The notes under the pieces were generated by a model, which made no database searches, was not told where the DNA came from, and worked only from the letters and a program-made list of their open reading frames with translations. A stretch of 64,000 nt of DNA from a virus, in the IMG/VR virus record IMGVR_UViG_3300020421_000007, positions 1-64,000 of that record. One strand, 5' to 3'. This document shows positions 2,256-58,883 of the stretch, piece by piece. Position 1 is the first letter of the stretch. Each line of letters opens with the position of its first letter. Position numbers and translations under genes: made by a program.

Positions 2256-2311
2256 TTTTTGAAATGGTTTTTTTGAAACCTTGAAAAGGAAAAAAATTTC
2301 CCAGCAAAAAA

Positions 2312-2654: not shown

Positions 2655-2655
2655 G

Positions 2656-13100: not shown

Positions 13101-16100
13101 ACAGTAAGTGGTGATACTATTGTTTTTAGCGCACCTCCATTAGGTTCAGGAACAAAATTAACTGGAAATAGTCTTACTGATGTATCTCCATATAATGGAA
13201 CAAAATTTGTTGGCAGACATTTCTACTTCAAAGATAATCAGTATAACACTCGATACATTAAGAAACTTAGAAATATTTTCCAGAGAGGTGGCACATGGAT
13301 AGATGCTGCTAATCAGATTGATAGGAATAGACAGTTTATTATTGAAGAATCTATTGGATATGGAAAACAGTATTACAGTTCTTTAGATTGGAGCACAAAA
13401 CTAGATGATTATACACTGGATATTGGTTATATTCTTGATGCTTATCAACATGATTTGAGATTTGGTGGAAATAGTAAAGTTATTGATTATGCTAACATTT
13501 TTGCTAATGGTTCTAAGTATATTACCGACAACAAAACAGAGTCTCTGTCTATTTTCAGATATGCTACAAATTTAGCAAACCTAGCAATTATTAATTGGGA
13601 TTATGTAGAGCAATCAGTTGTTTTCTTCCAAGGTTCTACTGAAGTTAGAGTAGCTGATACCGATAGGATTGCTATTGGCATGACTATCAGTGCTGGAAAA
13701 GCATTTAGTCCAAATACTATTGTTGTTTCTATTGATAGTAAAACAAAATTAACACTTTCAAAACCAGCTTTAGCAAATGCTGGTGGTGGTGGCGGTGCAT
13801 CAGCAGGAGTTACATATTTGAATGGAACTACCAGTGGCAATGAAGTTTTACCATCTAGTACAGGTGCCGTATTGCCAGGAAATCAATATTCTGTAAATCC
13901 AGGAGATACAGTACAAGTTCCTACATCATTCGCTTCTACTGACAGTGCTACATTCTACTTTAGTGGAATCAATAATGGAACTTACTACGATGCTTCAAAT
14001 CTAATTAACAACAATAAAGCATATTTACAAGAAGAAGTAAGTGAATTTGTATATGCTAACTATGCTCTACCATCATCGGATAAAGCAAAGTGTGCTAGAG
14101 ATATTGGAATTCTAGTTGATAATGTTGTCTACCATTTGAGATTTGGTGGAAATGCTAAATTAGTTGAATTCGCTCAATTGTATTATACCAATCGTGGATA
14201 TCCTTATGGAGAAGAATTAACTTATCTAAATGGATTGGAAATTACAGCAGCAAATGCAGCATGGGATAGATTAAAGGATCTCATGGTTCTCGCAATGCGA
14301 AATACTTTGGGAACGGGAACTTATACTAACATAAATCCATATACTGATAATACAGTTTTTACTGATACTGATTTCCCAGTTTGCGCTGAAGTTGAGTCAT
14401 CTATCGACACAATGATCAGCATTGTTAAAGATATTATTGCTAAAGGAACTGGTGTAGTAGAAGTTGTAAATATCAATCCAAACAAATCTGGTTATTGGTC
14501 TGCTACTCTTACATATTCAAATTACAACATTTTACCAGATCCATTAATCCCAGACTCAGAATGTGCAGATGTAATTTCGTCTGTAAATTCTCTATACAAT
14601 AATCTGGATGATATTTTAAATGAGTTGGAAGTTGCTAGGGCACTACCAGATTACATTGATGGTGAGACTAAAGAATTTGAATTATATTGGCAAGATGGTT
14701 CTTCAGTTGTTACAGAACCTGATGAAAATTTCTTACTATCATTAAACGCTGTACTACAAGAAACTAAGTACAATGCTTCATATCCAGGTGATGACTCATA
14801 TTACATTGACAGAACTGTAGTTCCCAACAAATTAGTATTTGATGTTGCTCCTATCTGGGATCAATATGCTGGAGCAAGAACTCTAGGAGAACCAACTGCA
14901 GTTGAAAAAGTTGTAGGTACTGGTGTTGGTAATTACAAGAGAATGACTCTTGATAAGAATTTAATTAACAATGTTAGAACTGGTCCTTTCTTAATTTTAG
15001 ATTTAGAAGATTTAACTGTTGCCAATATTGAAGAACCTGCTTATTTCTTAGTATTCATCGATGGAGTGCTTCAGAAAAGTGGTGAATCATACACTGTGTC
15101 TGGTCCAAACATTTTCTTTAACTTCCCAATTACAGAACAAATGAATGTTGACATGAGATACCTATATGGTAGAAATGTCGGACAAATTTTAAATCTGTAT
15201 GATTTCAATGTAGATAACTACTATGCTAATGGTACAGTTTCTCTACAAACTACATTTGGTATCCCTGAGTTCTTGAGTAGGAACTGGATGGGTATTAGAA
15301 GAGGAGATAGAATTCAAGCATATCAATATGGAAATTCCACCACATACAATGTAATTGGTGAAGTTTATGATATCTCTAGTAATGGAAACACATTAAATTT
15401 CCGTATATTTGGAAACAAGTGTGAGATAATTCAAGGTAGAGATGTTTACTTTGCTGTTGTTGGAAGATATGAAAGTGTGTATACTATTGTTGGATTAGAT
15501 TCCTCTGGGTCTAGTATAACATACGAAACTGATGCTGACAACAGAATTCTCGTAAGAGGAAGTGAAACATGGCGCGGTACACTTTTAAGAAAGACATACA
15601 AAAATCCTTTTATAAACTTATCAAATAATACTTTAATTAAGGTTGATGGAGAAGATAGTTTTAGACGAGTAAAAGAACTTCCATCAGATTTAGTTGCTAA
15701 AGAACAAAGACCACAAGAACAGTTATCAAATAATTTCTTTGGTCAAGTTGAAGTTGAAGCATACAATGGTGTTACTAGAGGTGAAGGTCTTTCTATTGTT
15801 GCTACCATTGAAAATGGTTCTGTTGTAAAACTTGATTGGAACAAACGTAGTTATGATCCTATTACACAACCAACTGCATATCAATACTATACCCCACCTG
15901 TAATTAACTTCATTCCAGAAAATGGAGAAGGTGGTGGTGCTAGAGCAGCAGTTATTGTTAGTAAGGGACAAGTAATCAGTGTTGAATTAATTTCTGGTGG
16001 TTCTGGTTATACCAAAGCACCAAAAGTAGTTGTTGCTAGAAGATATAAGATATTCAAAGAAACTGATATTGGTGTTTCTTTAATTAATGCTTCAATTAAT

Positions 16101-17559: not shown

Positions 17560-19371
17560 ATGGCTGCTATTATTTCTGATAAGTTTCGTATTTTTAACGC
17601 GAAACAATTCCTAGAATCCTTGACGGAAGGTCCAAGCGAAACAAGTGCTGAGCGCACTAGAATGTACTTCTTTGTTGGGCGTCCCCAACCTTGGAAAGCA
17701 TATCTAGAAGTGTATTCAAATTCTTCTACTAATTTTACTGTAGGTAACGAGGTTTACGTTGGTACTTACGGTTCCACAACATTCCGTGCCACAGTTGCCG
17801 AAGTTTATGATAGTGCCCTTCTCCTAACCGACGTTTTTGGTAGCAACGGAACAAACTCCACTCCAACTCTAGGACAAGATCTAAAAGAAACTGCCAACGC
17901 TGGATCTTCCGACACAGCAGCAACTGCTAAGGTAGGTGTCTACCGCTACGCTACTGAGGATGTTCCACCTCTACCTCTTGATAACCAAAGAGAAAAGATT
18001 AATGTATATGATGAATTGATCGCTGCTAAGCGTATTACTGATTCTTTTGCTAGAACAGTTATTCGCCGTTATAACTGGGATCTAGTTGCGAATCCTAAGT
18101 TTGACATGTGGAAACCTGATTACTCTGCTACCCCTGCTGGTGGTGGTCAGGTTGGCAAATCAACTGCAACAGGTCAGTCTGCTATTGCTGATGCTAAGTT
18201 CTATGTAATGAACTCTGATTATGAAGTATTCAAGTGCCTTTATAATGGGGAGAATATTGCTAACCCATCTGGTCAAAACGCAACTGAAGAACCAAAAACT
18301 TCTGGTGGTAACTATGCTTCTTCCACTGGTCTCTACACAGAGACTTCTGGTGCTGGATACATCTGGAAGTATATGTACACCATGCCAACTGATGATGTCC
18401 TAAGATTCCTATCTTCGGATTTCATGCCAATTGTTCTTCCCTCCAACAACTCTCGTACTGCTGTTACTGGATCTGCTGTTGCTGGTGCGATTGATGTCGC
18501 TCTAATTGAAGATGGTGGTTCTAATTTACCTGCATCGCAAACTCTGTACACTGGCATTAAAGGTGACGGAACTAATGGTGTTATTATGTTTGCTACTAAT
18601 GGTTCTGGAACTATTACATCAGCATCTGTACAAAACCGTGGATCGGGTTATACATATGCCAACGTTCTTCTTGGTAACGGCAACCTCTTCTCTGACGCTA
18701 GTTTAAGTACAGCAGTTACTACTCCTGCTAACGGAATTGGTTCTATCGAAGTTGTGATGCCACCTCAAGGTGGTCATGGTTCGGATCATGAAGTAGAACT
18801 TAATGGTAAGCGTGTGATGACTAACATCCGCTTAACTTATGCTGAAGGTTCTGGTGATTTCCCAGTTGACAATGACTTCCGTCGTATTGGAATCATTAAA
18901 GATCCATACAACTGGGGTACAACAACATTTGCAACTGATGACACTCGTTCTGGTTTAAGAGCAGTTAAGATTACTGGTGCTACAGCAGATTTCATTCCTG
19001 ATGAAACCATCAGTCAGACTGTAACTGACGGTACTGCAAAAGGAACTGTTGTTTCATGGACTCTTGATAGTGGTTCAACAACTGCTGGAGTTCTTAAGTA
19101 CATCCAGACTAATGATGCTCACACTGATCAAGGTGTTGTAAGAGCATTTGAAAGCAATGGATCAAACGCAATTAGTGGTGTTGGTTCTGCTGCTTCTGGT
19201 AATGTAGATACTACCTATTCTCAGTCTCTACTCGGTTCAACTTTCTCTTCTGGTCTTGCTACTCCAGAAATTGAAAACAACTCTGGTGATATCATCTATC
19301 AGGAAAATCGTCGTCTCATCACCCGTGCTCCTGACCAAATTGAAGATATCAAATTAGTTATCGAATTCTAA
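17560..19371 (+). CDS. gp8: Baseplate wedge subunit gp8
   Basis: MAAIISDKFRIFNA, YFFVGRP.PW, VFKCL, GYIWKYMY, RQI/RIG..DP, NSGDIIY.ENR motifs. Confidence 0.93.
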   Translation: MAAIISDKFRIFNAKQFLESLTEGPSETSAERTRMYFFVGRPQPWKAYLEVYSNSSTNFTVGNEVYVGTYGSTTFRATVAEVYDSALLLTDVFGSNGTNSTPTLGQDLKETANAGSSDTAATAKVGVYRYATEDVPPLPLDNQREKINVYDELIAAKRITDSFARTVIRRYNWDLVANPKFDMWKPDYSATPAGGGQVGKSTATGQSAIADAKFYVMNSDYEVFKCLYNGENIANPSGQNATEEPKTSGGNYASSTGLYTETSGAGYIWKYMYTMPTDDVLRFLSSDFMPIVLPSNNSRTAVTGSAVAGAIDVALIEDGGSNLPASQTLYTGIKGDGTNGVIMFATNGSGTITSASVQNRGSGYTYANVLLGNGNLFSDASLSTAVTTPANGIGSIEVVMPPQGGHGSDHEVELNGKRVMTNIRLTYAEGSGDFPVDNDFRRIGIIKDPYNWGTTTFATDDTRSGLRAVKITGATADFIPDETISQTVTDGTAKGTVVSWTLDSGSTTAGVLKYIQTNDAHTDQGVVRAFESNGSNAISGVGSAASGNVDTTYSQSLLGSTFSSGLATPEIENNSGDIIYQENRRLITRAPDQIEDIKLVIEF

Positions 19372-19390
19372 TAAAAATAGATTAATTAAG

Positions 19391-19418
19391 TCCCCCGAGA
19401 GATCGGGGGATTTTTTTT
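19391..19418 (+). terminator. Rho-independent terminator
   Basis: TCCCCCGA-gaga-TCGGGGGA followed by T8. Confidence 0.9.
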
Positions 19419-19423
19419 ATCTC

Positions 19424-19431
19424 TATAAATA
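19424..19431 (+). promoter_or_regulatory. T4-type late promoter
   Basis: TATAAATA directly after the terminator. Confidence 0.8.
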
Positions 19432-19467
19432 CTAAGGACAAAGAATGCTAGTATTTGGCGGAAAACG

Positions 19468-22400
19468 ATGCCACAAAAGACTAACTTAAATGTAAATCCT
19501 TACTACGAGGACTTTGACGCGAATAAGAATTTTTATAAGATTCTATTCCGTCCTGGGTACTCTATTCAAGGTAGAGAACTAACACAGATCCAATCGATTC
19601 TACAGAATCAAGTTGAATCTTTTGGTAAGTATGCTTTCAAACAGGGAGACTTAGTTGTTCCTGGGGAAGTGGGTCTTAACACAAAGTTAGATTACGTTAA
19701 GTTATCCTCAGTATCTGAAGTTGCTGTTTCAGAGGGAGATGATATCGTATATAAAAAGTATGATATCAGTCAATTAATTGGTCTAGAAATCAGAGGTTTA
19801 AGTTCTGGTGTTGTTGCTACTGTTTTAGAAACAAAACTAGCGACAGAATCTACTGCCGATACGGTATACGTAAACTACCTTAGCAGTGGTGATTCTAACT
19901 TAGATACAACTTTCCGTCAAGGTGAGACACTAGAAGTAGTTGATGGTGTCAACACTCCACTTTTAGTTGTTGGAACTGACGGTAGTGTTCTTCCAACTAG
20001 TATCGAAGTTAAAAATCCAGATACAGGAGAAGTTACGTCTCTAGAAAGTCCTGCCATGGGATATGCTTCTGCTGTAAAAGTGGAAGAAGGTATTTACTTT
20101 GTTAATGGATACTTTGTTCGTAACGATAAACAACTATTAGTAATTGATGATTACTATGATAATCCATCAGCAAAAGTTGGATTTACTATTAAAGAAGACA
20201 TTGTAACTCCAGAAGAGGATGCTTCTTTATATGATAACTCAATTGGATCTTCAAACTATTCTGCTCCTGGAGCACATAGACTAAAAATTAGTTTAACTAT
20301 TAAAAAATTTGAATTGTCAGAAACAACTGACAAAAATTTCATTCAACTTATCACAGTATATAAAGGTGCTGTTCAAAAGAAAGTATCTCCTACAAACTAT
20401 AGTCTAATTGAGCAGACTCTTGCTAGAAGAACTTTTGATGAGAGTGGAGATTATATTGTAAATGATTTTTCTGTAGATATTAGAGAATATGCACAGAAAG
20501 ATAAAAATGGTGGATTCTATAAAGTTGACGAATTCGGATCATTTAATGGTTTAACAGAGTCTGAAGCAAGTAGAAAAATGCTTGCTGGTATTGGACCAGG
20601 TAAAGCATATATCAGAGGATATGAGATTGTCAACAAAGAGACAAAGTATCTAGAAATTAACAAAGCGAGAGAGTCGCTTTCAAGCGATAATGTTACTCTA
20701 AAAACAAAAGGTCTTCCAACTTTTAATATTACTAACACATATGGTAGTGTTCCTTTGAATAAGGAAGGTGGAGATTTAACCGCTTATCCATATGTTAACT
20801 TATTCGCAACTTATAATGATGGTTCTATAGGTCTTAGTGGCACAGAGTTATCAACTGACCACAGACAAACTTTAGATAAAAGAGGAACTACATTAACTAG
20901 TAATGATGGTATTAAAACCATTACAATCGATGTAACAAATACCACTACAACTTTAGCGTCAATTTCAGACGGTAATTTTTCAAATTTATCAGAACTTTAT
21001 TTTATCAAAACTAGAGATGATGCTGGTAATGCTCTCACAACAGGCAAACTCAAGTCTCTATCTTATGCTAAAGTAAACAAACCTCTGCTAAACGCCAATG
21101 ATCAGGTTCTATTTTTAGAACTTACAGTTGTTGGAGATAAAGATGATATTGATCTACTTCTCCTTGAGTATGATCCAGGAGACACCAACTATCAAAGAAA
21201 TATTTTCTTATCTGAAGCAGATGCTGCTACAGATTCAAATGAGTTGGGATTTATTATTGATTATAGTGAAACTATTACTCCATTAATTGGTAGAGCAAAA
21301 CCAAGTAATTTTTTCCTAAAGCAAAGAGGTCTTGGTTTTAATTCTGATTCTGATATTGTTATATCTAAAGGTAGACTAGCAGGTGGTGGAGACACATATA
21401 ATGCTATTTTTGGATTGTCATATTTTGATCCACAATTTTTCACCAAATTACTTCTAGAAGTAACTCCTACCAATAATAGTTTCGGTATTGGTAAGTATGT
21501 TACTGGTTTAACTAGTGGTGCTTATGGTGTTGTTGAAGGTGCGCCTTCTGGTGTATATTCCATTGGAAAAATTTTATTTGTAAAAACCCTATCAGGAAAA
21601 TTTGTTTCTGGAGAGTCTATCAGAGACGAAGATGGCGTAACAAATAGAATTGCTAAAGATAATACTATTTCACATTTTATTGTAGCAAATAGAGGACTTG
21701 GATATGCTGATAATTCGACTCTCGTAATTAATGGTGTTGAATATGATGCTGCAGCAGCAGAAGCTATTCGTTTAACAAATGGTTCTTTCTATGCTGTACA
21801 AATTAACAACAAATCTGCGCTTTCTACAGAGTATGCACAACCACCATCAGTAAGTATTAAACAACCAGATGGTGCCGCTAACCCAAGTATTACTGCTGTT
21901 ATTTTACCAGTATTGGTTAGGAATGCTGTAACTACATACAACCCCCAGAATGTAAAATCTTTATCTGCTCAGTATGGTTCTGGAAATGCTAATATCTTTA
22001 CTGCTGATTTGGTAACAGATGATCAAGCATTTGCAGAAATTAAATCTGTAACTAGTTTTACTTTCTTTGGATCCAAGGGATATAATTTCATTGAATCTAC
22101 TAGTTTTAGTGCTGACGCAAGTCTTCTATTACAACAGGGTGATGTCATTCAATTCTCAGATGAAGACAACACACTTGTTCGTGCTGTTGTACAACTTGCT
22201 ACTGTCAGACAAGGATCTTCTAAGTCACGAGTATATCTAGATACTGTTCTTCCTGGAAACGTTACTAATACTAGTATTGTTAGATTGCGTCCTAGAGTTG
22301 ATAATTCTAGTCAAGGAACTCTTCTGTTCCCCACGGGAAGTAGTCAGATTAAAAAAGTAGCTGATACACCAGAAGAAACTAAAATTAAGTATTTCTTCCG

Positions 22401-25400
22401 TAGAGATTTTGTAACTACAGCATCCACATCAGGTGGTACAATTACATTTGCTGCTCAGTTACCATTTGGAACACAAAGATTTTCCACATTTAATGAAGAA
22501 AATTATATCATTACAGTTTTAGATCCTGGCGATGCTTCCAACATTACTAAAGGTGATATTATTTACATTGATAAAGATAACGTAGTAATTTCATCGTCAA
22601 CTGATACTGCCAGTGGATTGACTTCTGGCAGTATTAGTTTGAACTTACCATCAACATACTTTGGTATTATTCCAACAAACGGAACGTTCCCCAAACTAAA
22701 ACTATCAGCAACACTAGAAGTTCTAAATGCTAAACCTAGATTAAAAACATCTATTGAAAATAAAAGGATTGTTGTTACTTCGTCTGGAGATCGTGTAATT
22801 CCATTTAGAGGAACAGATTATGATAGCGATGTAGTAGAAACTATTTCATATTCTGATGCGTATAGACTAAGATACGTATATGAAGGAAGTGCTACTCAAC
22901 CACCATCTGTAGATACTTCAGGTAATTTAATTTCTGGTATAGATGTAACTGATAGATTTACATTTGATAATGGACAAAGAGATACTGTATATGACGTTTC
23001 TAGGATTGTATTGAAACCAGGAAAAGAACAAACCTCTGGACAACTTGTAATTGCTTTTGATTACTTTGAACAATCTCAAGGAGATTTCTGTACCATCGAT
23101 AGTTACATACATGAAGCTGGAGTAACAGAAGACTTAATTCCATCATTTAACTCTGCTGTACATGGCATTCTAAATCTAAAAAATGTATTAGACTTTAGAC
23201 CTAAAGTAGATTCTGCTACTACAATTTCTGGATTCCAAAACGAATCTTCATTAGCAAATAGTATTGGTAGTTTTGCTGGTGCTGGATCAGTTATTGCTGC
23301 TACTCCAGCGCCAGATACCAATCTAGAGTATACACTGTCATTTAGTCAAGTACAATATCTTGATAGAATAGATGGCGTTTTCTTAAATAAAAATGGAAAC
23401 TTTATTGTTAAAGAAGGAAACTCTTCACTAAATCCAACAAAACCAGATCCAATTGATGATGCTATTCCTCTATTCTATGCTTACATTCCTGCTTATACAC
23501 AAACAAGTAAAGATGTAAGAATTACCTCTGTTGACAATCGTCGTTATACGATGCGTGATATTGGTAAGTTAGAAAAACGCATTGAAAGACTTGAATATTA
23601 TACCACTCTTAGTATTCTAGAGCAACAAGCTCTTAATATGCAAGTTAAAGATGAAATTGGTCTTGATAGATTTAAGTCTGGTTTCTTAGTTGATAACTTT
23701 GAAGCACATAGATCTGGAAGTCTCGTATCTTTAGATTATCAGTGTGCTATCGATTCCCAACAATCTGTAATGCGTCCACAGTCTAAAGAAGATTCACTTT
23801 TCCTCAAAGAGGTTAATAAAAGAGAAGATCAGAGATTTGTTTCTGGATACAAAAAATCTGGTGATATTGTCACCCTTCCATACACCAGTTTAAATCTTTT
23901 AGGAAATAATTTTGCTTCTAAAACACTAAATCCAAATCCATTTGTAGTTCTTCAGTATGTTGGCGATGCTGCGTTATCACCAAGTATTGATCAATGGTAT
24001 GATCAATCCACGGAACCATTAGTTGTAGATACCAATACTGATCTCTACAAGATCTTTATTGCTAAGCAAGATGTTAGAGAAAGTTTCTCAAGTTTATTCA
24101 ATTCATTTATTACTAATTGGGTTGGTTCGTCTCCATCATTTACATCTATTAATTCACTAGGACAAGTAAATTCTTTAGATGTTCAATCTTCAGTAAGCAA
24201 TGCTTCTACTGCATCTTCATCTAATATTAGTCCACAAAATAATGATGTTGCTAAAGGTGTTCAATCTTCTACAATAAGAGGCAACGTAGTATCCAATGGT
24301 GTACAATTCTTCGCTAGAAGTCAACCAGTCAAATTTGTAGTTAGAAGGTTAAAACCAAATACTAGAATTTCTGTTTTCTTAGAAGGAAGAGATATTAGTC
24401 GTTGGGTTAATCCAGATCTTAGATTTACTGGAATTGCTGGAAATTCTTTGTCGGCATTTAATGGAACTGTTACCACAGATGATGACGGCAATGCTAGTGG
24501 TCTTATTCTCCTACCAGCAGGATTTGCTCCTAGACAAAATGCTACTTGGGGTGGAGATGTAGATACTGTTGATTATGACACAGATTCAGAAGAAGTAAGA
24601 GTAACTACAGGAATAAAAACCTTTAGATTTACATCTAGTTCTAATGATGCTGACAAACTAACAGTAGATACTTATGCTGAAGTCAAGTATTATGCTGTTG
24701 GTATTTTACCAGAAAATCCAGTAAGTATTATTTCCACAAAACCATCATTCTTTAAAGCAAATGAGGGTGTACAGTTTGTGGATAGTAATACTGATAACCC
24801 AGTAAGACCAAATCCACTTGCTCAAACATTTAAAATTGAAAATTATGATGGTGGAGTATTTACTACTGGTATTGATCTATACTTCAGTTCTAAGAGTAGT
24901 AAAGTTCCCGTCAAAATTTACTTAACTAATGTTGAATCAGATAAACCTGGTAAGAATATTATTCCTGGAACAGAGAAAGTTATATCACCACTATCATACA
25001 TTAAGTTCTTTACTAACGCAAACGTATATGTTACTAGGGGAGAAAAAGTAACTGGAACAACATCTGCTGCTAGTGGTCCCATTGAGAAAATCATCGACAA
25101 AAATGGTGTTGATTTAGTTCCATCTTCATCTGGAAGATTCTTATTAACAAACGAGCAGGTTTACACTATGGTTCTTAGTAACCATAATGGTCGTTCTTTC
25201 AATCAAAATGAAACATTATCAATTCCATCAGTAACTCTCAGAAATAATACTGAAGGAGAATCTGGTATTGTAACTATTGCTAAAGATAGTGGTAAAGTTT
25301 CAGAAATTAGAATTACTAATCCTGGACAAAATTATAATAATGCTATTTTAACTATAGAAAGTCCACAACTTCCTGGTGGTTCTGTTGCTACCGCTAGCGT

Positions 25401-27582
25401 AGAAGTTTCGGATGGTAAGATTTATAATACTGAAATTAGTCTAAATGGATTTGGATACACAGAACCACCTTCTGTGGTCATCAAAGGCATCGGTAACGGT
25501 GCTGGAGGATGTGTAATTGAGACAGAGATAGAGATTGATAGTCCAGCAGTTAGAATGGGTGTAGCGGTCGATCAGGAGGGTCTTACAGATTCTACTGTTC
25601 CTACTCACTTTGAATTCGATCATCCTGTATATTTACAGAATGACACCGAATATGCTATGGCAATTGAGACAGATTCCACAGATTATGAACTGTGGGTATC
25701 AAGACTTGGAGAAGTTGACGTTGCAACAAGCACCGTAATTACAACACAACCATCACTAGGATCTGTTTATAGATCGCAAAATGTAGACAACTGGACCGAA
25801 GATATTTTTGAAGATGTCAAGTTCTCTTTATACAGAGCAGAATTTGATATCAGTAAGACTGCTGAACTTTTATTGACTAATGAGTCTCTTGGATACGAAC
25901 TTCTTCCCAAGAACCCATTTACCACTAATGCTACCGCAAATACTAATGCAACATCTAGACTGTTCAGAAATAATAATAATATTGTTCAAGTATCTCATAG
26001 AGATAATGGATTTGAAACTTCTGGTCTATCATATGTTTTCTATAAAGGAGCATTAGAAACAGGTGGTGTTACGGCAGATGTCCTCAACAACACTCTTTTC
26101 CAAATTACGAATAGTGGCATTGATACTTACAATATTACGTCATCTATCGCTGCTTCTGGAAATGTTGACGGTGGTGGTGAAAAAATCTATGCTACCTACA
26201 ATAGGAAGTATGAAACTTTATATCCACAGATTCAATATTTGTCCTTCACTGGCACTAAATTAGAGTCAATGGTCAAAACAACTAATGTTGTTCCTGTAGA
26301 TTCCACCACGATAAACTATACTTCATATTCACAAAGTGACTATGAAAAAACTTTCTTGAATGAACCACATTTCTTTACCAATCAAAAATTTATTGCTTCT
26401 GATATTAATGAAACTCTAAACAATGTTACATCATTAACTTATAAGTTATCACTGTCGTCTACGGTTTCATATTTGTCTCCTGTAATTGATCTTTCCACAG
26501 CAAGTGTTAAAACTGTTTCTAATAGAATTGAATCTGCTTCTGGTCAAGAGAACAGATATGGAAGAAGAGATCAAATTATTAAGTTCTTCCCAATCTATAA
26601 GTTTAACATTGGAAATACTAGTGGAACACAAATTCAAGACAATCAAGCAATTGAAGGGTATACTTCAAAAGCAGTTGGTACTATCGCTAAAGTAGAAGGT
26701 TCGACAGTATTTGTTAGGTTAAAAACTACTCAATTCTTTAAGAGAGGAGAAAGACTTACATTAGGAAATCAACCAACATTAGTTGAAACAGAAAATGGAG
26801 TAATTGTACCAGCTGCTAAAGTTGACACAAACCCAATTGAAACTTTAATTGATATTCCAGATGCTGCAACTATGACTGCTAGAAATCCATCAACGATTTT
26901 AGAATCTTATGATAATATTATTACTGGAAGCGCAGTAATTTGGGATGATAAAACTCAACAACTAGAGGTTAGAAATGATACTCAACCAATTCTAGATGAT
27001 TTTACTAGTAGGATTATTGACAATTTCGTATTCAATAGAAACTCAGTTGTCAACGATCAACTTGCTGATATCTTTAGAGTAGGAGATATCCTTAAGTATC
27101 CAAATCAACCAGATGATGAAGCAAGTTTCTTAGAAATTAAATCAATTGATTACGCAAATGGAATTACATATGTTTCTGATAACACATCCAAAAATAGTTC
27201 TTCTGTAGCAAAATACGTTACTAAAGAAGTTGCTATTAGCAATCCAGGAACATCAATTAATCTTCAGTTGACTGTAAATGCAAAAGACATTAATGATGTC
27301 CAAGTTCTTTACAAATTTAAGAGATCTTCCAGTCAAGAAAATTTTGATGATATCAACTGGATTTACTTTAATGAAAATGGTCAACCAGATTCATTAGAGA
27401 TTGCTACTCCAGAAAATACCATTTCTTCTGTACTAGAAAAACAATCCTCTTATCAAGATATCAGATATAGTGTATCTGATTTACCTGAGTTTTCATCTTT
27501 TGCTATTAAGATTGTCATGAAGGGAGTTGATCCTGCATTTGTTCCTAAGGTTCAAGATATTCGTGCTGTTGCTTCTTTCTGA
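19468..27582 (+). CDS. VrlC-like/DUF4815-family large virion structural protein (2704 aa)
   Basis: PYYEDFD..KNFYKILFRPG..QGRELTQ.QSILQ, APGAHRLK, LARRTFDESGDY, RYTMRDIGKLEKRI, RFKSGF.VDNF motifs. Confidence 0.88.
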   Translation: MPQKTNLNVNPYYEDFDANKNFYKILFRPGYSIQGRELTQIQSILQNQVESFGKYAFKQGDLVVPGEVGLNTKLDYVKLSSVSEVAVSEGDDIVYKKYDISQLIGLEIRGLSSGVVATVLETKLATESTADTVYVNYLSSGDSNLDTTFRQGETLEVVDGVNTPLLVVGTDGSVLPTSIEVKNPDTGEVTSLESPAMGYASAVKVEEGIYFVNGYFVRNDKQLLVIDDYYDNPSAKVGFTIKEDIVTPEEDASLYDNSIGSSNYSAPGAHRLKISLTIKKFELSETTDKNFIQLITVYKGAVQKKVSPTNYSLIEQTLARRTFDESGDYIVNDFSVDIREYAQKDKNGGFYKVDEFGSFNGLTESEASRKMLAGIGPGKAYIRGYEIVNKETKYLEINKARESLSSDNVTLKTKGLPTFNITNTYGSVPLNKEGGDLTAYPYVNLFATYNDGSIGLSGTELSTDHRQTLDKRGTTLTSNDGIKTITIDVTNTTTTLASISDGNFSNLSELYFIKTRDDAGNALTTGKLKSLSYAKVNKPLLNANDQVLFLELTVVGDKDDIDLLLLEYDPGDTNYQRNIFLSEADAATDSNELGFIIDYSETITPLIGRAKPSNFFLKQRGLGFNSDSDIVISKGRLAGGGDTYNAIFGLSYFDPQFFTKLLLEVTPTNNSFGIGKYVTGLTSGAYGVVEGAPSGVYSIGKILFVKTLSGKFVSGESIRDEDGVTNRIAKDNTISHFIVANRGLGYADNSTLVINGVEYDAAAAEAIRLTNGSFYAVQINNKSALSTEYAQPPSVSIKQPDGAANPSITAVILPVLVRNAVTTYNPQNVKSLSAQYGSGNANIFTADLVTDDQAFAEIKSVTSFTFFGSKGYNFIESTSFSADASLLLQQGDVIQFSDEDNTLVRAVVQLATVRQGSSKSRVYLDTVLPGNVTNTSIVRLRPRVDNSSQGTLLFPTGSSQIKKVADTPEETKIKYFFRRDFVTTASTSGGTITFAAQLPFGTQRFSTFNEENYIITVLDPGDASNITKGDIIYIDKDNVVISSSTDTASGLTSGSISLNLPSTYFGIIPTNGTFPKLKLSATLEVLNAKPRLKTSIENKRIVVTSSGDRVIPFRGTDYDSDVVETISYSDAYRLRYVYEGSATQPPSVDTSGNLISGIDVTDRFTFDNGQRDTVYDVSRIVLKPGKEQTSGQLVIAFDYFEQSQGDFCTIDSYIHEAGVTEDLIPSFNSAVHGILNLKNVLDFRPKVDSATTISGFQNESSLANSIGSFAGAGSVIAATPAPDTNLEYTLSFSQVQYLDRIDGVFLNKNGNFIVKEGNSSLNPTKPDPIDDAIPLFYAYIPAYTQTSKDVRITSVDNRRYTMRDIGKLEKRIERLEYYTTLSILEQQALNMQVKDEIGLDRFKSGFLVDNFEAHRSGSLVSLDYQCAIDSQQSVMRPQSKEDSLFLKEVNKREDQRFVSGYKKSGDIVTLPYTSLNLLGNNFASKTLNPNPFVVLQYVGDAALSPSIDQWYDQSTEPLVVDTNTDLYKIFIAKQDVRESFSSLFNSFITNWVGSSPSFTSINSLGQVNSLDVQSSVSNASTASSSNISPQNNDVAKGVQSSTIRGNVVSNGVQFFARSQPVKFVVRRLKPNTRISVFLEGRDISRWVNPDLRFTGIAGNSLSAFNGTVTTDDDGNASGLILLPAGFAPRQNATWGGDVDTVDYDTDSEEVRVTTGIKTFRFTSSSNDADKLTVDTYAEVKYYAVGILPENPVSIISTKPSFFKANEGVQFVDSNTDNPVRPNPLAQTFKIENYDGGVFTTGIDLYFSSKSSKVPVKIYLTNVESDKPGKNIIPGTEKVISPLSYIKFFTNANVYVTRGEKVTGTTSAASGPIEKIIDKNGVDLVPSSSGRFLLTNEQVYTMVLSNHNGRSFNQNETLSIPSVTLRNNTEGESGIVTIAKDSGKVSEIRITNPGQNYNNAILTIESPQLPGGSVATASVEVSDGKIYNTEISLNGFGYTEPPSVVIKGIGNGAGGCVIETEIEIDSPAVRMGVAVDQEGLTDSTVPTHFEFDHPVYLQNDTEYAMAIETDSTDYELWVSRLGEVDVATSTVITTQPSLGSVYRSQNVDNWTEDIFEDVKFSLYRAEFDISKTAELLLTNESLGYELLPKNPFTTNATANTNATSRLFRNNNNIVQVSHRDNGFETSGLSYVFYKGALETGGVTADVLNNTLFQITNSGIDTYNITSSIAASGNVDGGGEKIYATYNRKYETLYPQIQYLSFTGTKLESMVKTTNVVPVDSTTINYTSYSQSDYEKTFLNEPHFFTNQKFIASDINETLNNVTSLTYKLSLSSTVSYLSPVIDLSTASVKTVSNRIESASGQENRYGRRDQIIKFFPIYKFNIGNTSGTQIQDNQAIEGYTSKAVGTIAKVEGSTVFVRLKTTQFFKRGERLTLGNQPTLVETENGVIVPAAKVDTNPIETLIDIPDAATMTARNPSTILESYDNIITGSAVIWDDKTQQLEVRNDTQPILDDFTSRIIDNFVFNRNSVVNDQLADIFRVGDILKYPNQPDDEASFLEIKSIDYANGITYVSDNTSKNSSSVAKYVTKEVAISNPGTSINLQLTVNAKDINDVQVLYKFKRSSSQENFDDINWIYFNENGQPDSLEIATPENTISSVLEKQSSYQDIRYSVSDLPEFSSFAIKIVMKGVDPAFVPKVQDIRAVASF

Positions 27583-32993: not shown

Positions 32994-35900
32994 ATGAGCT
33001 TAGATTTTAATGTAGATAAACAGATTTTATCTGGAACCGAACCTAAGATCTTAGGTTCCGAGAACTTTATTGTTAGATCTGGAAGTGGATCTGATGAGAA
33101 AGAAGTTTTCCGAACGCTTTTAGATCCATCAACTAAATTACCTAGACTTGGTATTAACAGGACTGGTAACAAAGTTGAGTCTATCACAGTAAATGAGAAC
33201 CAAGGTGGTACTGGATATACTGTCGTTCCCAACGTTGAGTTATCATATCCAGATCCGAATAATCTTGCTTTTGGTACTAGAGCTCTTGCTTCTGCATTAA
33301 TTAACAACGGTCAGGTTGTTGCTATTGTTGTTGATAATCAAGGAGCAGGATATACATCAGCACCAACCGTAACTATCACAGGTGGTGGTGGATCGGGTGC
33401 TGCTGCTACTGCTGTTCTAGACACTGTTGATTTTGAACTTGACATCAATGGTGCTATCAGAACATCTACTTCTATCATTTCTGATACGGCAAAAATTCTA
33501 AACCTGGATATTGATAATTTCATTACTCCAGATGCAAACTTTAGAGCACCAAATTTAAAAACTTGGGCAAATAATAGTGGTACTCCTTGGGCAGCAAATA
33601 TTGTTTTACAAAAAGGAGATTATTATTATAACGGAGGAAATATCTATGAAGTATTAGAAACAGGTCTTTCTGGTACTGTAGGTCCAGTTCACATAGACGG
33701 AATCGAACCCAATGGAGATGCTTCATTAAAGCATATTGGTTTTAGAGTCATTAATCCAGATCTTCCTTTATATAATGATACTGGAGATTCTGGAATTTTC
33801 CCTAGATCTATTACTCCAAAGTTAGGAGACAAATCAGATAAAATTGCTACTACAGAATACGTCCTCAACCTAGCAACGAATGACGTTGGTGGTCGTGTCT
33901 ATGTTTCACAATCTATTGGTAGTGATAACAATGATGGTAGATCTGCTGCTGCTCCTGTAAGAACAATTAAGAGAGCATGTCAGGTTGCTTCTGAAAGTGT
34001 TGGAGTTAAAGAAACAGTTATTATTGCTGGTGGTGATTATGTAGAAGATAATCCAATTTCTATTCCACCAGATTGTTCGATTGTTGGTGATAACCTTCGC
34101 TTGGTTATTGTTCGTCCTGCTAATCCTGGCAAACACATCTTTAAATTTGGCGATAAAAACTACGTTATTGGTGTAACATTCAGGGATCAAATTAACTCTG
34201 CTGGTGATGCTGTAGCAACTTGGGACTTTGCTATGGTCTTCGACGACAAGCAAAGAGTTTATTTTGATAGAAATGCTGGTGGTGATTTTGGAAGAAGTTT
34301 TCCTATTGGTCACCAGATATTTGGTCCAGAAAAAATTAGAGTTACTTTCCAAACTAACACAGGAACAAATCAATTATTAGTTGGAGAAACTGTACGAGGT
34401 GTTAACACTGGTGCTGTTGGTACAGTAACATCAGTAACTTTTGATGAGACAGACGCCAATGAACCAGATGCTTTTGTAAATGGTTCTATAGAAATTGATA
34501 TTGTCAGTGGTTCGTTTAACCTTGGAGAAACTTTTGAATATGAAATTGGTGCTGCTCCAAACATAACCACATTTGAATTTGTTGCTGTAGGACTTAAATC
34601 TATTCGAGCAGAGGGTGAAGTTGTATCCACTGGAATGGATCTAACAAATACCTTATCAATTGCTAGAATTGATACTACACTACAAGGTACAGCAGAAGTT
34701 TCTCAAAATGGTTTTGGATCTGAAACAGAAGGAAATGCCGAAGATCTTGGTGGTATTGTTATCTACACAAATGAATTACTTGGAAGAGATAATATACACG
34801 ATTTCCAAAACGGTGATGAGGTTATCATTAGTGGTCTTCCATCTTCAAACCCAGATCTTTCTTTCTTAAATGGAAAACAAAGAATTTATAAGGTCTTAGA
34901 AGATGCTGATGGTCGTTCTAGAAGATTTGTAATTCCAAAGAAAACTACATATTCAAATGCTAATTACGTACCAGTATCAGCATCTGTCTCCCACTATGCC
35001 GATTACGTTACCCTTACACTTCTAAACTCCCCAAATAAATTTGAGAGAGCAAACTATGTTGCGAGAAGATATCAAGATGCTTGTAACTTAATTAGAAATA
35101 ACGCAGATTTTATTGCGGCAGAAGTAGTAGGTCAAGTCAATAAAGAATTTGCAAAAGAGTATTTTGAAGTATCTGCTGTAAATACTAATGCTAATACTTT
35201 CCAAGTATATACAACTCCAAACAATTTTGTACATACTTACGTAAGTGGAGGAACTGTTTCTTATGGAGGTCAAACTTTTACGGTAACAGATCTAGATTAC
35301 AGTAATATTAGTGGCATCGGTACTATTACATTAAATAGTTCTCCAAACTTTACAGATGGTCAAACTGTAAAAATTGAAGGAATTATAGTTTCTTGTACAG
35401 TTAATGGAGTAACATCACAGAAAGAATATCCAAGTTTTAATATTCCAATTGGTGATTATAAGTGTACTAGAGACCTTAAGATTATTATCCATTCCCTGTT
35501 AATGGATTTGGAATACGGAAGTAATGATAATGTTATTGAAGCAGCAAAGAGATATATTGTTGGAAATCAAATTGACTTTGTTGATAAAGAAATTATTCAA
35601 ACAGTAAGAGCAATTGAATACACAAGACAATTGTGTATCCTTGCCATGAGAAATTGGAGAGTAGGAACAGGACTTGTAACAGAACCCATTTATGTTCCTA
35701 AGTATGCAACAGGTGTAGCAAGATATTTTGATGATACTGTAATTACAACTACTGCTGGTGTAAATGCGGATGGATCAGCATCTGATGGAACAGCATGTGC
35801 TGATGTTAAATCAGCAATTGATACATTAGCATACTTATTTGTTGATGTTCTTGCTAACAATGCTTCGGGAACATTATTAGATGCTGCATATTTGATCGCA

Positions 35901-38900
35901 AGAAACAGAGATCTTATTGTTGATCAAGCGTTAATAGATGCTCAAATTACATATCCTTCATTATCTTTAGGAGTTCTAGGAGAATATAAGTGTAGAAGAG
36001 ATAGTAACATAATTTTAACCAATGTAATTCGAGATTTAGTTCTAGGTGGTAATGCTGGAATTGTTACTGCCGCTGAATCTTATTATACTGGTACAGAACT
36101 TACAGGTCTTCCAGCAAATGAAGTTGCTGCTACAATCTATGCCTTTGGTAAAGTTAAAGATTACGCTATTGACGCAATGCGTAATTGGACTGATGGAACA
36201 GCTGCTTCAGCTCCTGTGCTTGCCACAGCAACTAATGCTACTTACAACTCAAATACAGGAGATGTAACTGTTACCATTGCTGATCCAGCAACAGCATTGA
36301 CTACCAGTGACAGAGTTGCCTTTAAAGAAGGTGCTATGACTTGGACATGTTCATCGAATGGTGGTGGAGATCTGGCAAGTCCTACATTCCAAGATAGAAA
36401 TAACGGAAGAAGTCTTGAAATTATTTCTGTAAGTTCTTCCAGTGGATCTACAACATTTACTTTTAACGTTGGTGATGCTGGTTCTGTACAGGGTGTTGCT
36501 CACACATTTGTTAGTGGATTGGCAAATGGTGTTGTTCTTATCTATGAACCACTTGCTGCTAATTCATCTTCTATTCCAAGATATGATGATTGGAATATTC
36601 TTCCAGATCCAAGTGATCCTAATTGTGCTACTGTTGCTTCTGCTATCACAACATCTTTTGAACTGTTGGAAGATATTTTAGATGGAACTACTGCTCCTGG
36701 AGGAACAGTAAAAACATTTGGAACTCTATATGATACCACAAATATTATTAATTACGCATCAACAACGTTATATGATGCGAACAATGATAGAATTACTCCA
36801 ACTGCTGTATATGATGATCTCCCAATTATTGAGGCATCTCCATACACTCAAAACTCCTCAATCATTTCTTTCTTAGGTGGTGGCGGATCTCTAGTTGATG
36901 GTTCTAAAGTTAAGAGTCCAAACTGTCCTTTCCCTGGTTTGGAACCAGATGGAAGCGCATCGTTCCCCAATCAAGGTAAGTCGATGGTTGCTTCGGCATT
37001 CACGATTGTTTCATTTGGTGGCACTGGATACAAAGTTGTAGAAGATGGATATACACAACTTGTATCTGTTTTTGTTATTTTCTGTGAAGATGGTATTCTT
37101 TGTGAAACTGGTGGTTATGCGTCAGTTACTAACTCAGCAACTAACTTTGGTACATTTGCTTTAAGAGCAACTGGATTTAGAAAAGATCCATACACCTTTG
37201 ACGTTGGTCAAATTGTTGGTGTAAGTTCTTCTACTGGAACAAATAGAACTCAATTTAGAGTAAGTGGTCTTGGCAGAGAACCATTAGAGCATTACATTGT
37301 CAAAATTGACGGATATAAAAATCACAATCCAGATATTGAATTTTTCGTTGAAACTGTAGAACAAGTAACAGTTGGTCCTCCTTTTGAAGCATTACTAACA
37401 TTAGAAAGTGGTTCTGGTGGAGCAGCTGAATTTGAAGATGTAAATAACCCTGGAGTAATTGTAAGTAATTCTTTAGCAGAATTTAGTGGAGTTACTCTAA
37501 GATTACATAGACCATCTATTGTTAACTCTTCTTCCCACACCTGGGAATTTGCTGGTTCTGGTACTAACTACAATGCTCTACCTGAGAACGGTGGTACTAA
37601 GATTGAAGCAAACGAGCAAGTACCACAGAACTATGGTCGTGTTTACTGTTCTGGTACTGACGAACTTGGTGACTTCAAGGTTGGTACGTTCGCTAAGATT
37701 GAGAACAGAACTGGTGCTATTACCTTCACAGGTACTGTTACGATCTCGGAAGTTGAATTCTTGAAACTGAAAGGTGGCGACGTTGTTGTTACTGGTTTCG
37801 ATGCATCCAACACACTTGGTGGCGCTAACTCTACCGACTCTAAACTACCTACACAGAAGGCAGTTAAGGATTACATTACTAACAACCTTGGTCCTTATCT
37901 CAACAAACCATATTCCACAAACGCTGTTCCTAGAGCACTAGTCGAACTTACAGATTCTGGTAAAATTTCTATTGACCAGATTCCAGCACTCAGACCTTTT
38001 AGTGTCTTCACTGTTGCCGATCAAGCAGAAAGATTAGCACTAGAAGGAGCACTTGCTGGTGACATTGCTATTCAGCAAGACAACAATGTCTCGTTCATTC
38101 TAAACAATGACCTGAGTAGTTTGTTTGTTGGTTTCCCAATCGACTCCAATTTAGTATTCAACACAGGAGATATCTACACTGGTTCTAATACGGGTGGTAG
38201 AATCCAAGCAACTGAATATAGACAGGGTGTTGTATATCAATTAAATATTACTGATGCTGGTTCTGGATACACATCAGCACCAACCGTTACAATTAACCAT
38301 GCTGGCAATGCTCCATCCGTGGAAGCAAAAGCAGTAGCAACCATCGCAAATGGTCAAGTTGTTACACTAACTTTAATTACGTTTAACAGTTACATTGGTG
38401 GTCTTGGTTATGACGCTCAACCAACAGTAAATATCGCTGCTCCTGGTGGTGGTGGAACAACTGCGGTTGCCAGTGCTCTAATTGAAAGTAGAGTATACGG
38501 TGATATTGTTAACAACATTAAGATTGACGATACTGATAGTATTGATGATAGCGATTCTCCCGCAAATACTGTTTCTATTAATAGAGTAGTTAACACATCA
38601 TCGAACATTGCTAGCAACTGGGTATCTCTATCTGCCACTCAAATTTCTGCTACAGATATTACATCTGGTATTATTTCTACTTCCAGACTAGCATTAAATT
38701 CATCTGCAGCAAACTCTTTCACCTTCTTAAGAGGAGATCAAGCATATGCTCCTGCTGTTCAGTCATTTAAAGCAGCAGAAACAAGATACTTTGCTATCTT
38801 GTCTAGTCAAGCAAACAATGGTTCATCACAATTAGTCTTCCCGACTAATGCTGATGTACTAAAAGGACATGAAGTAAAAGCAACTGTAAATGGTATTCAA

Positions 38901-54425: not shown

Positions 54426-54748
54426 TGAAATTTCTATTTGCGTTCTTAGCAACGCTATTTCTTGCTGCCCCCGCATGGGCAGTCGATGTAACGATGGGTT
54501 CAAATGGCAATCTAGTATTTGAACCAAACGACATTACAATTTCAGCAGGAGATACTGTTCATTTTGTGAACGGTATGCTACCTCCACATAACATTATTGT
54601 TGAAGGTCGTGCTGACCTCAGCAGAGAATCATTGATGTTTAATCCTGGTGAATCACAAGACATTAAGTTTGCTGATGCTGGAGACTACGATTTCTTCTGT
54701 GGTCCTCACCAAGGTGCTGGAATGGTTGGTACAATTCATGTAGAGTAA
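54425..54748 (+). CDS. petE: Plastocyanin
   Basis: Signal peptide (A-W-A); GDTV.F.N...PHN and C.PH.GAGM.G type-1 copper ligands. Confidence 0.95.
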   Translation: MKFLFAFLATLFLAAPAWAVDVTMGSNGNLVFEPNDITISAGDTVHFVNGMLPPHNIIVEGRADLSRESLMFNPGESQDIKFADAGDYDFFCGPHQGAGMVGTIHVE

Positions 54749-55251
54749 TGAAAAAATTCAACAGTTTAGTTTTAGATTTCACTGTTGCAATACTAGACTA
54801 CCTCTATAGAGGTAGACATTTCCAACGTTTCTGGGTGCTTGAGGAGATTGCTCGGGCACCTTATTTTGCATTTTTAAGCGTATTGCATTTTCGTGAAAGC
54901 ATGGGACTTCGTGGTCCTGAGCATTTATATCTAATGAAAACACACTTCGAGCAGTCAGTCAATGAGACAGAACATCTGGAGTACATGGAATCTAGGGGCG
55001 GCAATGCTTATTGGGTGGATCGCTTTGTCGCCAGACACCTCGTACTTATCTACTATTGGAGCAACGTGGTTTATTACTGGGTGGCTCCTCGCCTTGCTTA
55101 CCATTTGTCCTATGAAGTAGAAATCCACGCGGCAGAAACATATGCCAAATATCTAACTTATGAAGATTGGAATGATAAAAAAATTTGGGAGATTATGAAT
55201 GACGAGATCCAACACTTCCAAGAATTACAGGAAGCAATGGAGATGATCTAA
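54748..55251 (+). CDS. ptox: Plastoquinol terminal oxidase
   Basis: RFWVLEEIARAPY, NETEHL, EVEIHA, DEIQH diiron-carboxylate motifs. Confidence 0.93.
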   Translation: MKKFNSLVLDFTVAILDYLYRGRHFQRFWVLEEIARAPYFAFLSVLHFRESMGLRGPEHLYLMKTHFEQSVNETEHLEYMESRGGNAYWVDRFVARHLVLIYYWSNVVYYWVAPRLAYHLSYEVEIHAAETYAKYLTYEDWNDKKIWEIMNDEIQHFQELQEAMEMI

Positions 55252-55547
55252 TGTACAAAAACTACCCACCCGAGATGGAACCGCCCCATCTAACAACAAA
55301 AGAAGAAGTTCAGGAGATGCTTGACGATATGGCACATCGAATGACAGAAATTAAACCACCACATTATACTACTGAAGAGCAAGTACAGGAGATGATTGAC
55401 GATGCCATACGAAAACATAATCGCAATGCTGGAATTATCTCTATGTGTGTTGGGTGGGTTGTTCTCGCACTTTTTGCTGAGGGTCTGCTTCGACTTATTG
55501 GAGTAGTACCACCACTTTTTGATTGGCTAAATTTAAGTATACAATAA
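55251..55547 (+). CDS. Small membrane protein with a duplicated N-terminal motif
   Basis: PPHxTTxExVQEMxDD occurs twice, followed by one hydrophobic helix. Confidence 0.75.
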   Translation: MYKNYPPEMEPPHLTTKEEVQEMLDDMAHRMTEIKPPHYTTEEQVQEMIDDAIRKHNRNAGIISMCVGWVVLALFAEGLLRLIGVVPPLFDWLNLSIQ

Positions 55548-55553
55548 AAAACA

Positions 55554-56591: not shown

Positions 56592-56719
56592 CTTTTGGAC
56601 ATGTCTTACTTTGGACAGCAATACCCTTTGTTCTATCCACGATATACTTCGGGATGCGAAAAGGTGAAAATGTATACTACGAATCAGATAATTATGACGG
56701 AAACGGAACAGCTCACTAG
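56588..56719 (+). CDS. ndhP: NDH-1L small subunit NdhP (43 aa, missed by the ORF track)
   Basis: MTFGHVLLWTAIPFVLSTIYFGMRKGENVYYESDNYDGNGTAH*: one TM helix plus the NdhP-type C-terminus Y.SD.Y.GNG.AH; ATGA-coupled to gnd. Confidence 0.85.
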   Translation: MTFGHVLLWTAIPFVLSTIYFGMRKGENVYYESDNYDGNGTAH

Positions 56720-58680: not shown

Positions 58681-58883
58681 ATTTATTATTGCGTCCGTTA
58701 GAAAATAATAACGACCCTGTTTGGAGTGTGATCATTAGTATCATGCTGCTCCTAGCAGGGGTTTTTTATGTCGTCTACTATATACTTGGTATTGACGAGA
58801 GAGAATCCCATGGGAGCAATGACACCACCCAGTCGGAAGAGCTGCTACAACTTCAGAGTGACAGAGATCAACAGAGTCCTTGA
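58677..58883 (+). CDS. Small single-TM hypothetical protein
   Basis: Hydrophobic segment VWSVIISIMLLLAGVFYVVYYILGI; ATGA coupling. Confidence 0.65.
   Translation: MNLLLRPLENNNDPVWSVIISIMLLLAGVFYVVYYILGIDERESHGSNDTTQSEELLQLQSDRDQQSP

Follow-up and report, generated by a model that had tools for sequence, protein, structure and literature searches.

Phycobiliprotein beta chains (CpcB, CpeB and the cryptophyte beta chains; Pfam family PF00502) are free subunits of 17-20 kDa with a globin-like core, and carry bilin pigments at two sites that lie on opposite sides of the fold. The same fold is found within a large multidomain cellular scaffold, the core-membrane linker ApcE, in which bilin attachment is autocatalytic and involves a different cysteine, and sensor globins and the N-domains of the stressosome protein RsbR use the same superfold as a signal-input domain. 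Here we describe phycobiliprotein-fold modules in a giant virion protein of 2879 amino acids encoded in a 64,000-nucleotide stretch of viral DNA (positions 1 to 64,000 of IMG/VR record IMGVR_UViG_3300020421_000007; this whole stretch is referred to as the window). These modules are almost certainly true homologues of phycobiliproteins, and they belong to a large family of repeat units in giant proteins of marine T4-like cyanophages. The literature searched yielded no description of a domain of phycobiliprotein type in any structural protein of a cyanophage.

The two modules of the 2879-amino-acid protein, designated A and B (Table 1), are tandem copies of each other; BLASTP aligned copy A with copy B at 60.1 bits (E 3e-15; 31 of 89 residues, or 35%, identical), and a second BLASTP piece paired their C-terminal cysteine-bearing helices (E 0.048). 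An AlphaFold model of the 540-amino-acid segment that holds both (residues 693-1232) reached a predicted local distance difference test score (pLDDT) of 81.9 and a predicted template modelling score of 0.84. In module A, the helices span model residues 2-26 (H1), 129-149 (the Cys helix), 153-160 (H3), 172-193 (H4) and 242-261 (the last helix); the corresponding helices of module B span residues 267-294, 302-325, 329-336, 349-370 and 517-538. Cys824 of module A is the equivalent of the bilin-binding Cys84, and the Arg and Asp that follow it correspond to Arg86 and Asp87. With regard to the second cysteine of module B, Cys1211 (model residue 519) would fall on chain residue 153 of the phycobiliprotein chain 1f99_B, counting back from the last aligned pair (538/172). 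The short motif AMRNW also occurs twice in the protein. The initial annotation had described two tandem related modules with beta-rich inserts, each with a Lys-Cys-x-Arg-Asp motif and a later cysteine; translation of the open reading frame (ORF) and a motif search placed every motif and cysteine where it had put them, and the inserts are visible in the AlphaFold model.

Sequence comparison places the modules with phycobiliproteins. When a profile built from 26 units was searched against PDB sequences, 90 matches were obtained at E<=10, of which 13 had E<1e-3; among the 60 matches listed, 57 were phycobiliprotein chains, one was a "bacterial fluorescent protein" and two were a glucanase. The best match was C-phycocyanin alpha (E 2.7e-5), and the first helix, the "YP" after it and the stretch KCxRDIGY..GG aligned to phycocyanin residues 37-103, with the phage Cys-x-Arg-Asp on Cys84-x-Arg86-Asp87. 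Comparison by hhalign with a phycocyanin profile (cpcA/cpcB from Acaryochloris plasmid pREB3) gave Prob 95.8 and E 7.8e-9 over 125 columns spanning the whole unit, and here the two module cysteines fell on the beta-84 and beta-155 bilin cysteines, the second on the Cys of "QGDCS" in phycocyanin beta. Among Pfam families, PF00502 was also the one most often matched by single units (five of the 26, with E 0.0082 at best), and one database fragment (P0163) bears a precomputed PF00502 label. A search of the ESM Atlas yielded no usable match.

Fold comparison led to the same family. With the 540-amino-acid model as query, all of the top 50 VIA-align matches were phycobiliprotein-fold chains (Z 14.0-16.2), and module B superposed on 1f99_B with Z 14.3 and a root-mean-square deviation (rmsd) of 2.0 Å over 131 aligned residues, model residues 266-538 lying on chain residues 34-172. 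A related unit without inserts, the second of two found in a VrlC-like protein of the same window (Table 1), was modelled with a pLDDT of 89.4 and compared with 48,161 chains by a search independent of Foldseek; the first match was the phycoerythrin beta chain 5aqd_M (Z 15.0, rmsd 2.5 Å, 142 aligned residues), and eight of the ten top matches were phycobiliprotein-family chains, with sensor globins following at Z 10-12. All 38 Foldseek rows listed for this unit were likewise phycobiliprotein-fold chains. The globin-like helical core (helices A/B, E, F, G and H) is present in the modelled units. The proposal that these are phycobiliprotein-like domains is thus borne out by both sequence and fold, including the structural likeness to globins, on whose presence the initial annotation had made its reading depend.

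The modules are members of a much larger repeat family. A unit comprises five helices and about 135-165 residues, whereas the beta-rich pieces are variable inserts, which are missing altogether in one relative (L021, in which both units fit into 325 amino acids) and are much longer in others (L006, L011 and L013). In an alignment (A1) of the window with 17 of 30 IMG/VR relatives, from which L022 (interrupted by stop codons) and near-duplicates were omitted, the two K-C-x-R-D motifs and the two later cysteines do not vary. Another relative (L027) carries an array with 10 KCxRD motifs and 13 matches to the unit hidden Markov model (HMM), and a profile search run exhaustively over 1.84 billion representatives identified 1,485 proteins at E<=1e-3 and 526 at E<=1e-30; among the 150 proteins listed, lengths reached 7903 amino acids and matched stretches numbered up to 34 per protein. 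The earlier description of two domains inserted into a beta-helix therefore holds as to the two domains, but has to be widened, as the module is a repeat unit that elsewhere forms these long arrays. The window itself contains four copies in two virion proteins, as had been proposed; by the unit HMM, the 3438-amino-acid VrlC-like protein adds two units, one of them without both cysteines. In that degenerate unit, the first of the two, "LDDYTLD" stands in place of KCxRD, so that the two cysteines have been lost together, while the fold signature is kept. A spare piece resembling a last helix follows the second unit at about 14454-14630.

Conservation within the family was assessed on 1,619 units, taken from the 150 giant proteins that the profile search listed. 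The column equivalent to Cys84 holds Cys in 1466 of 1514 aligned units, the Arg position holds Arg in 1425 of 1513 and the Asp position holds Asp in 1500 of 1514, so that the C-x-R-D pattern, first noted as retained in both copies of the 2879-amino-acid protein, is kept at 94-99% across the family. The column of the second cysteine aligns in 317 units and holds Cys in 221 of these. Both cysteines are present in 205 units, only the first in 91 and only the second in two, which marks the Cys84-type site as the family's core. An obligatory disulfide bond between the two conserved cysteines was considered and rejected on the same counts, and also because homology would place the two sites on opposite faces of the phycobiliprotein fold. 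A search for homologues of near-unit length with a second alignment (A2) returned 29 fragments and no free-standing phage protein of phycobiliprotein size, and none of the 8000 candidates that it scored was a true phycobiliprotein.

The module was found in cyanophages only, as far as tested, which agrees with the restriction that the initial annotation had raised as a question. When 50,697 phage records were searched with the segment by tblastn, 387 records matched and all 387 bear cyanophage-type names (Synechococcus, 319; Cyanophage, 57; Prochlorococcus, 10; Marine, 1); megablast of the segment against phages returned nothing. A giant protein made of short units (P0022) matched 232 records, mostly of cyanophages, and the only non-cyanophage row listed, from a Methylophilales phage, covers residues 30-93 of the query, which lie outside its best repeat stretch. 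Among complete genomes, the module profile matched 15 of 19 and two of five others, and none of the five represented by T4, KVP40, the Pelagibacter phage HTVC008M, the freshwater phage S-CRM01 and Ma-LMM01. HTVC008M (NC_020484) is placed in the Kyanoviridae and has neither the module nor cpeT, in keeping with a trait that follows phototrophic hosts and not the virus family.

A link with bilin metabolism was found for one of the genes that had been proposed to co-occur with the module. Across a hand-picked set of 29 complete and mutually related genomes, 26 of them from cyanophages, module and cpeT were both present in 15 and both absent in 12; two genomes have the module without cpeT and none has cpeT without the module (Fisher p 1.8e-6 for the 29 genomes and 1.8e-5 for the 26 cyanophages, without correction for phylogeny). 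Lines that lack both include P-SSM2/P-SSM5, S-SM2, S-SSM7, S-SRM01, S-PRM1 and S-CRM01, which the records assign to several genera. The gene cpeT is found 1.3-4.1 kb upstream of, and on the same strand as, the first module in S-PM2, S-MbCM7, Syn1 and S-RSM4; three small ORFs separate it from the giant gene in S-MbCM7, and one listed ORF plus about 0.7 kb without an assigned ORF do so in S-PM2. Among the intervening ORFs, one of 238 amino acids is common to S-MbCM7 (19472-20188) and S-PM2 (155628-156344); it lies directly upstream of the giant gene in S-PM2, and S-MbCM7 has a further ORF (20175-20792) between the two. P-HM1 and P-HM2 carry modules, CpeT, haem oxygenase and bilin reductase. As a side observation, a 148-amino-acid ORF of P-SSM4 (NC_006884, 16642-17064) matches Pfam CpeT above the cut-off in two stretches; a 2010 review (PMC2984593) states that cpeT was not found in this phage. 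T-type lyases are described as serving the Cys-153/155 site of beta subunits (PMC10452541), and the second cysteine of the modules occupies that same position. None of cpeT, bilin reductase and haem oxygenase was found in the record from which the window comes, an 83-kb fragment estimated to be 43% complete, so that their absence is uninformative.

How this evidence should be read depends on several rival explanations. One of them, that an unrelated helical bundle shares C-x-R-D with phycobiliproteins by chance or convergence, draws on the facts that helical models often give middling Z values with unrelated bundles, that Foldseek returned no match at E<=1e-3 for either model, and that a profile of the C-terminal half, searched against the PDB, gave a single spurious match (E 0.64) and thus no sequence likeness to phycobiliproteins, which leaves the equivalence of the second cysteine resting on hhalign and the fold. 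The X-Y N-terminal helix hairpin, moreover, is absent from the unit, the alignments beginning at chain residue 31-35 (in some VIA rows, chain residues 3-33 are overlaid by the final two helices of module A); the loop preceding the Cys helix is shorter; no single unit of the 26 reaches Pfam's own gathering score for PF00502; the window segments have no PF00502 match even at E<=10; and copy B alone matches nothing in Pfam. These points count against homology, but three independent measures, namely the 26-unit profile, hhalign and a fold match ranked first among 48,161 chains, agree with one another, as do the 38 Foldseek rows, and a chance likeness is accordingly very improbable. What the modules do is a separate matter. 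Attachment of a bilin pigment seems to us the best single explanation, given the near-total retention of the triad, the assembly of these viruses in bilin-rich cells and the tie to cpeT, and taken as a whole we regard it as evenly poised between right and wrong. Its main rival is structural reuse of the fold, in which the module would be a stable helical spacer or oligomerization unit without chromophore and Cys-x-Arg-Asp would serve folding or contacts between units; we consider this a real but distinctly weaker candidate. The length of the arrays and of the proteins that contain them is what one typically sees in fibrous proteins of phages, there is free variation in inserts and in unit length, the X-Y helices have disappeared and the loop ahead of the Cys helix has become shorter, the degenerate unit of the VrlC-like protein is retained without either cysteine, and there is no link with bilin synthesis genes. 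Against structural reuse stand the identity of the three residues kept at 94-99%, which are exactly the phycobiliprotein bilin-contact triad, the fact that a free cysteine is seldom kept for packing alone, and a family that tracks cpeT (15 of 17 genomes with the module, 0 of 12 without), often adjoins it and was not found outside cyanophages.

A number of observations weigh against pigment attachment itself, several of which bear on the chromophore pocket. The loop before the Cys helix, which lines the chromophore in phycobiliproteins, is 6-8 residues shorter in the modules; several residues invariant in phycocyanin alpha and beta chains are lost, among them Arg and Tyr in "LRY..Y"; and the phage-specific profile residues Asp56, Asn62 and Tyr72 are conserved at 83-99%. 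The loss of the phycocyanin invariants together with these phage-specific residues suggests that the pocket may serve another end. The second cysteine is missing in 91 of the 296 units that have both the first cysteine and an aligned column, and in the HMM alignment 1,170 units stop short of the last helix. With regard to the bilin genes, the genomes compared were chosen by the author and are related to one another, S-ShM2 and P-SSM7 carry the module and have no CpeT match, and, among 19 genomes, neither bilin reductase (7 genomes; 5 of 15 with the module vs 2 of 4 without) nor haem oxygenase (4 genomes; 2 of 15 vs 2 of 4) is associated with it, so that the co-occurrence envisaged with pebS, pcyA, ho1 and cpeT held for cpeT and failed for the reductases and ho1. 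Coloured or fluorescent cyanophage particles have not, to our knowledge, been reported, although no specific search for such a report was made. A further explanation would give the modules a role other than that of a virion photoreceptor: within the infected cell they might bind bilins or the lyase and so act as a sink or regulator in the pigment metabolism of the host, or they might be binders of another small ligand in the manner of sensor globins, or phycobiliprotein mimics directed at host linker or degradation proteins. It could draw on sensor globins and stressosome sensor domains being the next-best fold matches, on the phage-specific residues being conserved near the motif, and on the co-occurrence with cpeT, which would fit an intracellular interplay too; but the modules are found in late structural proteins, between the genes for baseplate proteins gp6, gp8 and gp7 and the neck genes and in tail-fibre families of the PHROG database, and tens of copies per virion protein would be an odd design for an intracellular regulator. 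We therefore judge such a ligand-binding or decoy role improbable.

The modules are almost certainly diverged beta-type, globin-like phycobiliprotein domains. They were most probably derived from a gene of the cyanobacterial host and then amplified as repeats within giant proteins of the baseplate and fibres in marine T4-like cyanophages. The X-Y helix pair has been lost from every unit and the globin core has been kept with the Cys-x-Arg-Asp triad on the equivalent of helix E; modules A and B both retain the second cysteine at the beta-155-like position, and the loops accept large beta-sandwich inserts. Under pigment attachment, a bilin could become thioether-linked to the Cys84-like cysteine while the virion assembles in the bilin-rich host cytoplasm, and attachment at the Cys155-like position, in units having that cysteine, might be made by the phage T-type lyase CpeT, so that the tail would carry a chromophore array. 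Gasper et al. are said to have reported in 2017 that viral CpeT binds phycoerythrobilin and has no clear host substrate. The modules, with their beta-155-like cysteine, would be a candidate phage-encoded substrate of CpeT, which bears on why most T4-like cyanophages carry cpeT. Even if they bind no pigment, they are a clear example of a host light-harvesting protein captured as a virion building block.

The most attractive use of such an array would be as a photoreceptor that gates adsorption by light. P-HM1 and P-HM2 have been reported not to adsorb in the dark, and adsorption of S-PM2 to be light-dependent and independent of photosynthesis, with P-SSM2 and P-SSP7 adsorbing in the dark (PMC6628666; preprint 10.1101/167650). 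The module profile gives 6 matches in P-HM2, 6 in P-HM1 and 11 in S-PM2, and none in P-SSM2 or P-SSP7. This comparison covers five phages only, two of which are one species, and is thus a lead rather than a result; P-SSM2, in addition, is described as adsorbing less well in darkness than when illuminated (PMC6628666), which also speaks against the proposed link. The authors of that study suggested light-sensitive receptors or tail fibres, in a passage that names no molecule (PMC6628666). The modules offer a testable candidate for how adsorption of S-PM2, P-HM1 and P-HM2 can require light without host photosynthesis. Light-gated adsorption is speculative, and we hold it to be unlikely, if less so than the ligand-binding or decoy role; particles in which CpeT-attached bilin arrays act as the photoreceptor for light-dependent adsorption are a slightly more doubtful proposition still. 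If true, such an array would be the first light-sensing organ of a virus particle.

Table 1. Module-related features, their parent proteins and neighbouring gp6 in the 64,000-nucleotide window.
Feature	Position	Strand	Evidence
Module A, phycobiliprotein-fold unit, residues 693-953	35070..35852	+	AlphaFold model, unit HMM 1e-37
Module B, phycobiliprotein-fold unit, residues 954-1232	35853..36689	+	AlphaFold model, fold match
KCTRD motif, module A, Cys824 (35463-35465, YKCTRD)	35460..35474	+	aligned on phycocyanin Cys-x-Arg-Asp
Cys935 (ACADV), first turn of last helix of module A, beta-155-like	35796..35798	+	hhalign; invariant alignment column C243
KCRRD motif, module B, Cys1000 (35991-35993, YKCRRD)	35988..36002	+	aligned on phycocyanin Cys-x-Arg-Asp
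Cys1211 (NCATV), start of last helix of module B, beta-155-like	36624..36626	+	hhalign
Beta-rich insert, module A, loop between H1 and Cys helix (equivalent of phycobiliprotein B-E loop)	35148..35453	+	strands, model residues 31-120
Beta-rich insert, module B, loop between H4 and last helix (equivalent of G-H loop)	36180..36617	+	strands, model residues 383-491
Giant virion protein, tail-fibre/baseplate type, 2879 amino acids	32994..41633	+	ORF call, PHROG 5342 match
Related unit 1 of VrlC-like protein, degenerate, without both cysteines	13290..13760	+	HMM 1.4e-21
Related unit 2 of VrlC-like protein, insert-free, both cysteines (KCARD)	13977..14450	+	HMM 2.1e-35
VrlC-like protein, 3438 amino acids	7182-17498		after gp6
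gp6	5381-7177		Pfam Gp6-like

The inserts differ among relatives at both sites. The insert of module A is absent in L021 and longer in L012 and L013, and that of module B is absent in L010, L017, L019 and L021. The inserts of the window and of L006, L011 and L013 share a recurring motif (TY..TG..T.T ... F.C ... G ... P ... TF..NVG), which is itself repeated many times in relatives. With the 540-amino-acid model as query, Foldseek matched CopC and Sap S-layer domains (prob 0.85-0.99), and these matches suggest that the beta-rich inserts are immunoglobulin-like sandwiches, which might bind the host surface.

The 2879-amino-acid protein as a whole has no Pfam family at E<=0.1 and matches PHROG 5342, "tail fiber protein", with E 0 and 3976 bits (best stretch, residues 732-2764 on profile positions 1154-3115); the match extends to the full-length family, with the flanks matching at 1e-219 and 0. 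The initial annotation had placed the modules inside a pectin-lyase-like beta-helix, a placement that is weakly supported by the flanking sequences. The N-terminal flank has a weak match to Pfam DUF1565 (PF07602; E 1.9e-4, 21.3 bits vs a cut-off of 20.3, profile positions 2-60 only) at flank residues 58-117, or about residues 308-367 of the protein; we take DUF1565 to be a family of the beta-helix clan. No Pfam family matched the C-terminal flank at E<=10, and phmmer searches of either flank against PDB sequences gave no match at E<=1. The same tail-fibre PHROGs match both flanks, phrog_17885 at 46-171 and 672-738 and phrog_9851 at 311-405 and 970-1078.

The window corresponds to the block of late structural genes in a marine T4-like cyanomyovirus. 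Downstream of the VrlC-like ORF follow a gp8-sized ORF, a gp7-sized ORF of 2704 amino acids, ORFs of 1555 and 169 amino acids and the 2879-amino-acid ORF, after which come the neck protein gp14, then gp15, PTOX, gnd and zwf. This order agrees with that of Synechococcus phage S-MbCM7 (KF156338), in which S-MbCM7_083 is the positional orthologue of the 2879-amino-acid protein. The orthologue (17661-26795) is labelled "neck protein gp14" in GenBank; as a separate gp14 of 374 amino acids lies downstream, this label is probably a mistake in the annotation. PTOX (Pfam AOX), gnd and zwf form a host-like metabolic cluster at 54748-58037, with a staphylococcal-nuclease-like ORF following it at 58768-59268. 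Two contigs from metagenome-assembled genomes labelled Methanobacteriota archaeon and Rhodopirellula sp. (L032 and L033) carry zwf 77-78% identical to the phage copy; these contigs are probably cyanophage DNA binned into those assemblies. No cyanobacterial genome was among the best 80 matches of this zwf search of genome contigs.

By its family match, the 2879-amino-acid protein belongs to the giant proteins of the baseplate and fibres in T4-like cyanophages (PHROG 5342, 701 and 4527), and the module-bearing genes of its relatives are named "gp7 baseplate wedge initiator", "VrlC" or "tail fiber" in GenBank. Its modules share with phycobiliprotein beta chains the globin-like core from helix A/B to H (rmsd 2.0-2.9 Å over 131-160 residues), Cys-x-Arg-Asp on the equivalent of helix E, a second cysteine immediately preceding the last helix, "YP" following the first one and "GG" closing the Cys helix. 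They differ in lacking the X-Y hairpin through which phycobiliproteins pair into the alpha-beta monomer, in having large beta inserts in their loops and a shorter loop before the Cys helix, and in occurring as 2 to about 30 tandem units within virion proteins of 2000-7900 amino acids rather than as a free subunit. ApcE resembles the phage proteins in setting a phycobiliprotein-fold domain with a loop insertion into a large multidomain scaffold, and was matched with Z 12.5-13.3 and rmsd 2.5-2.8 Å (4xxi_A, 7sc7_BD, 7eyd_19 and 9wg7_N2), but it is a cellular protein with a single such domain, whereas the canonical Cys84-type site persists in the phage units. Sensor globins and RsbR N-domains (3pmc_B, 4uiq_A, 4zva_A and 3zta_A) share the superfold and rank below the phycobiliproteins; they lack the C-x-R-D motif, and no sequence likeness to them was found.

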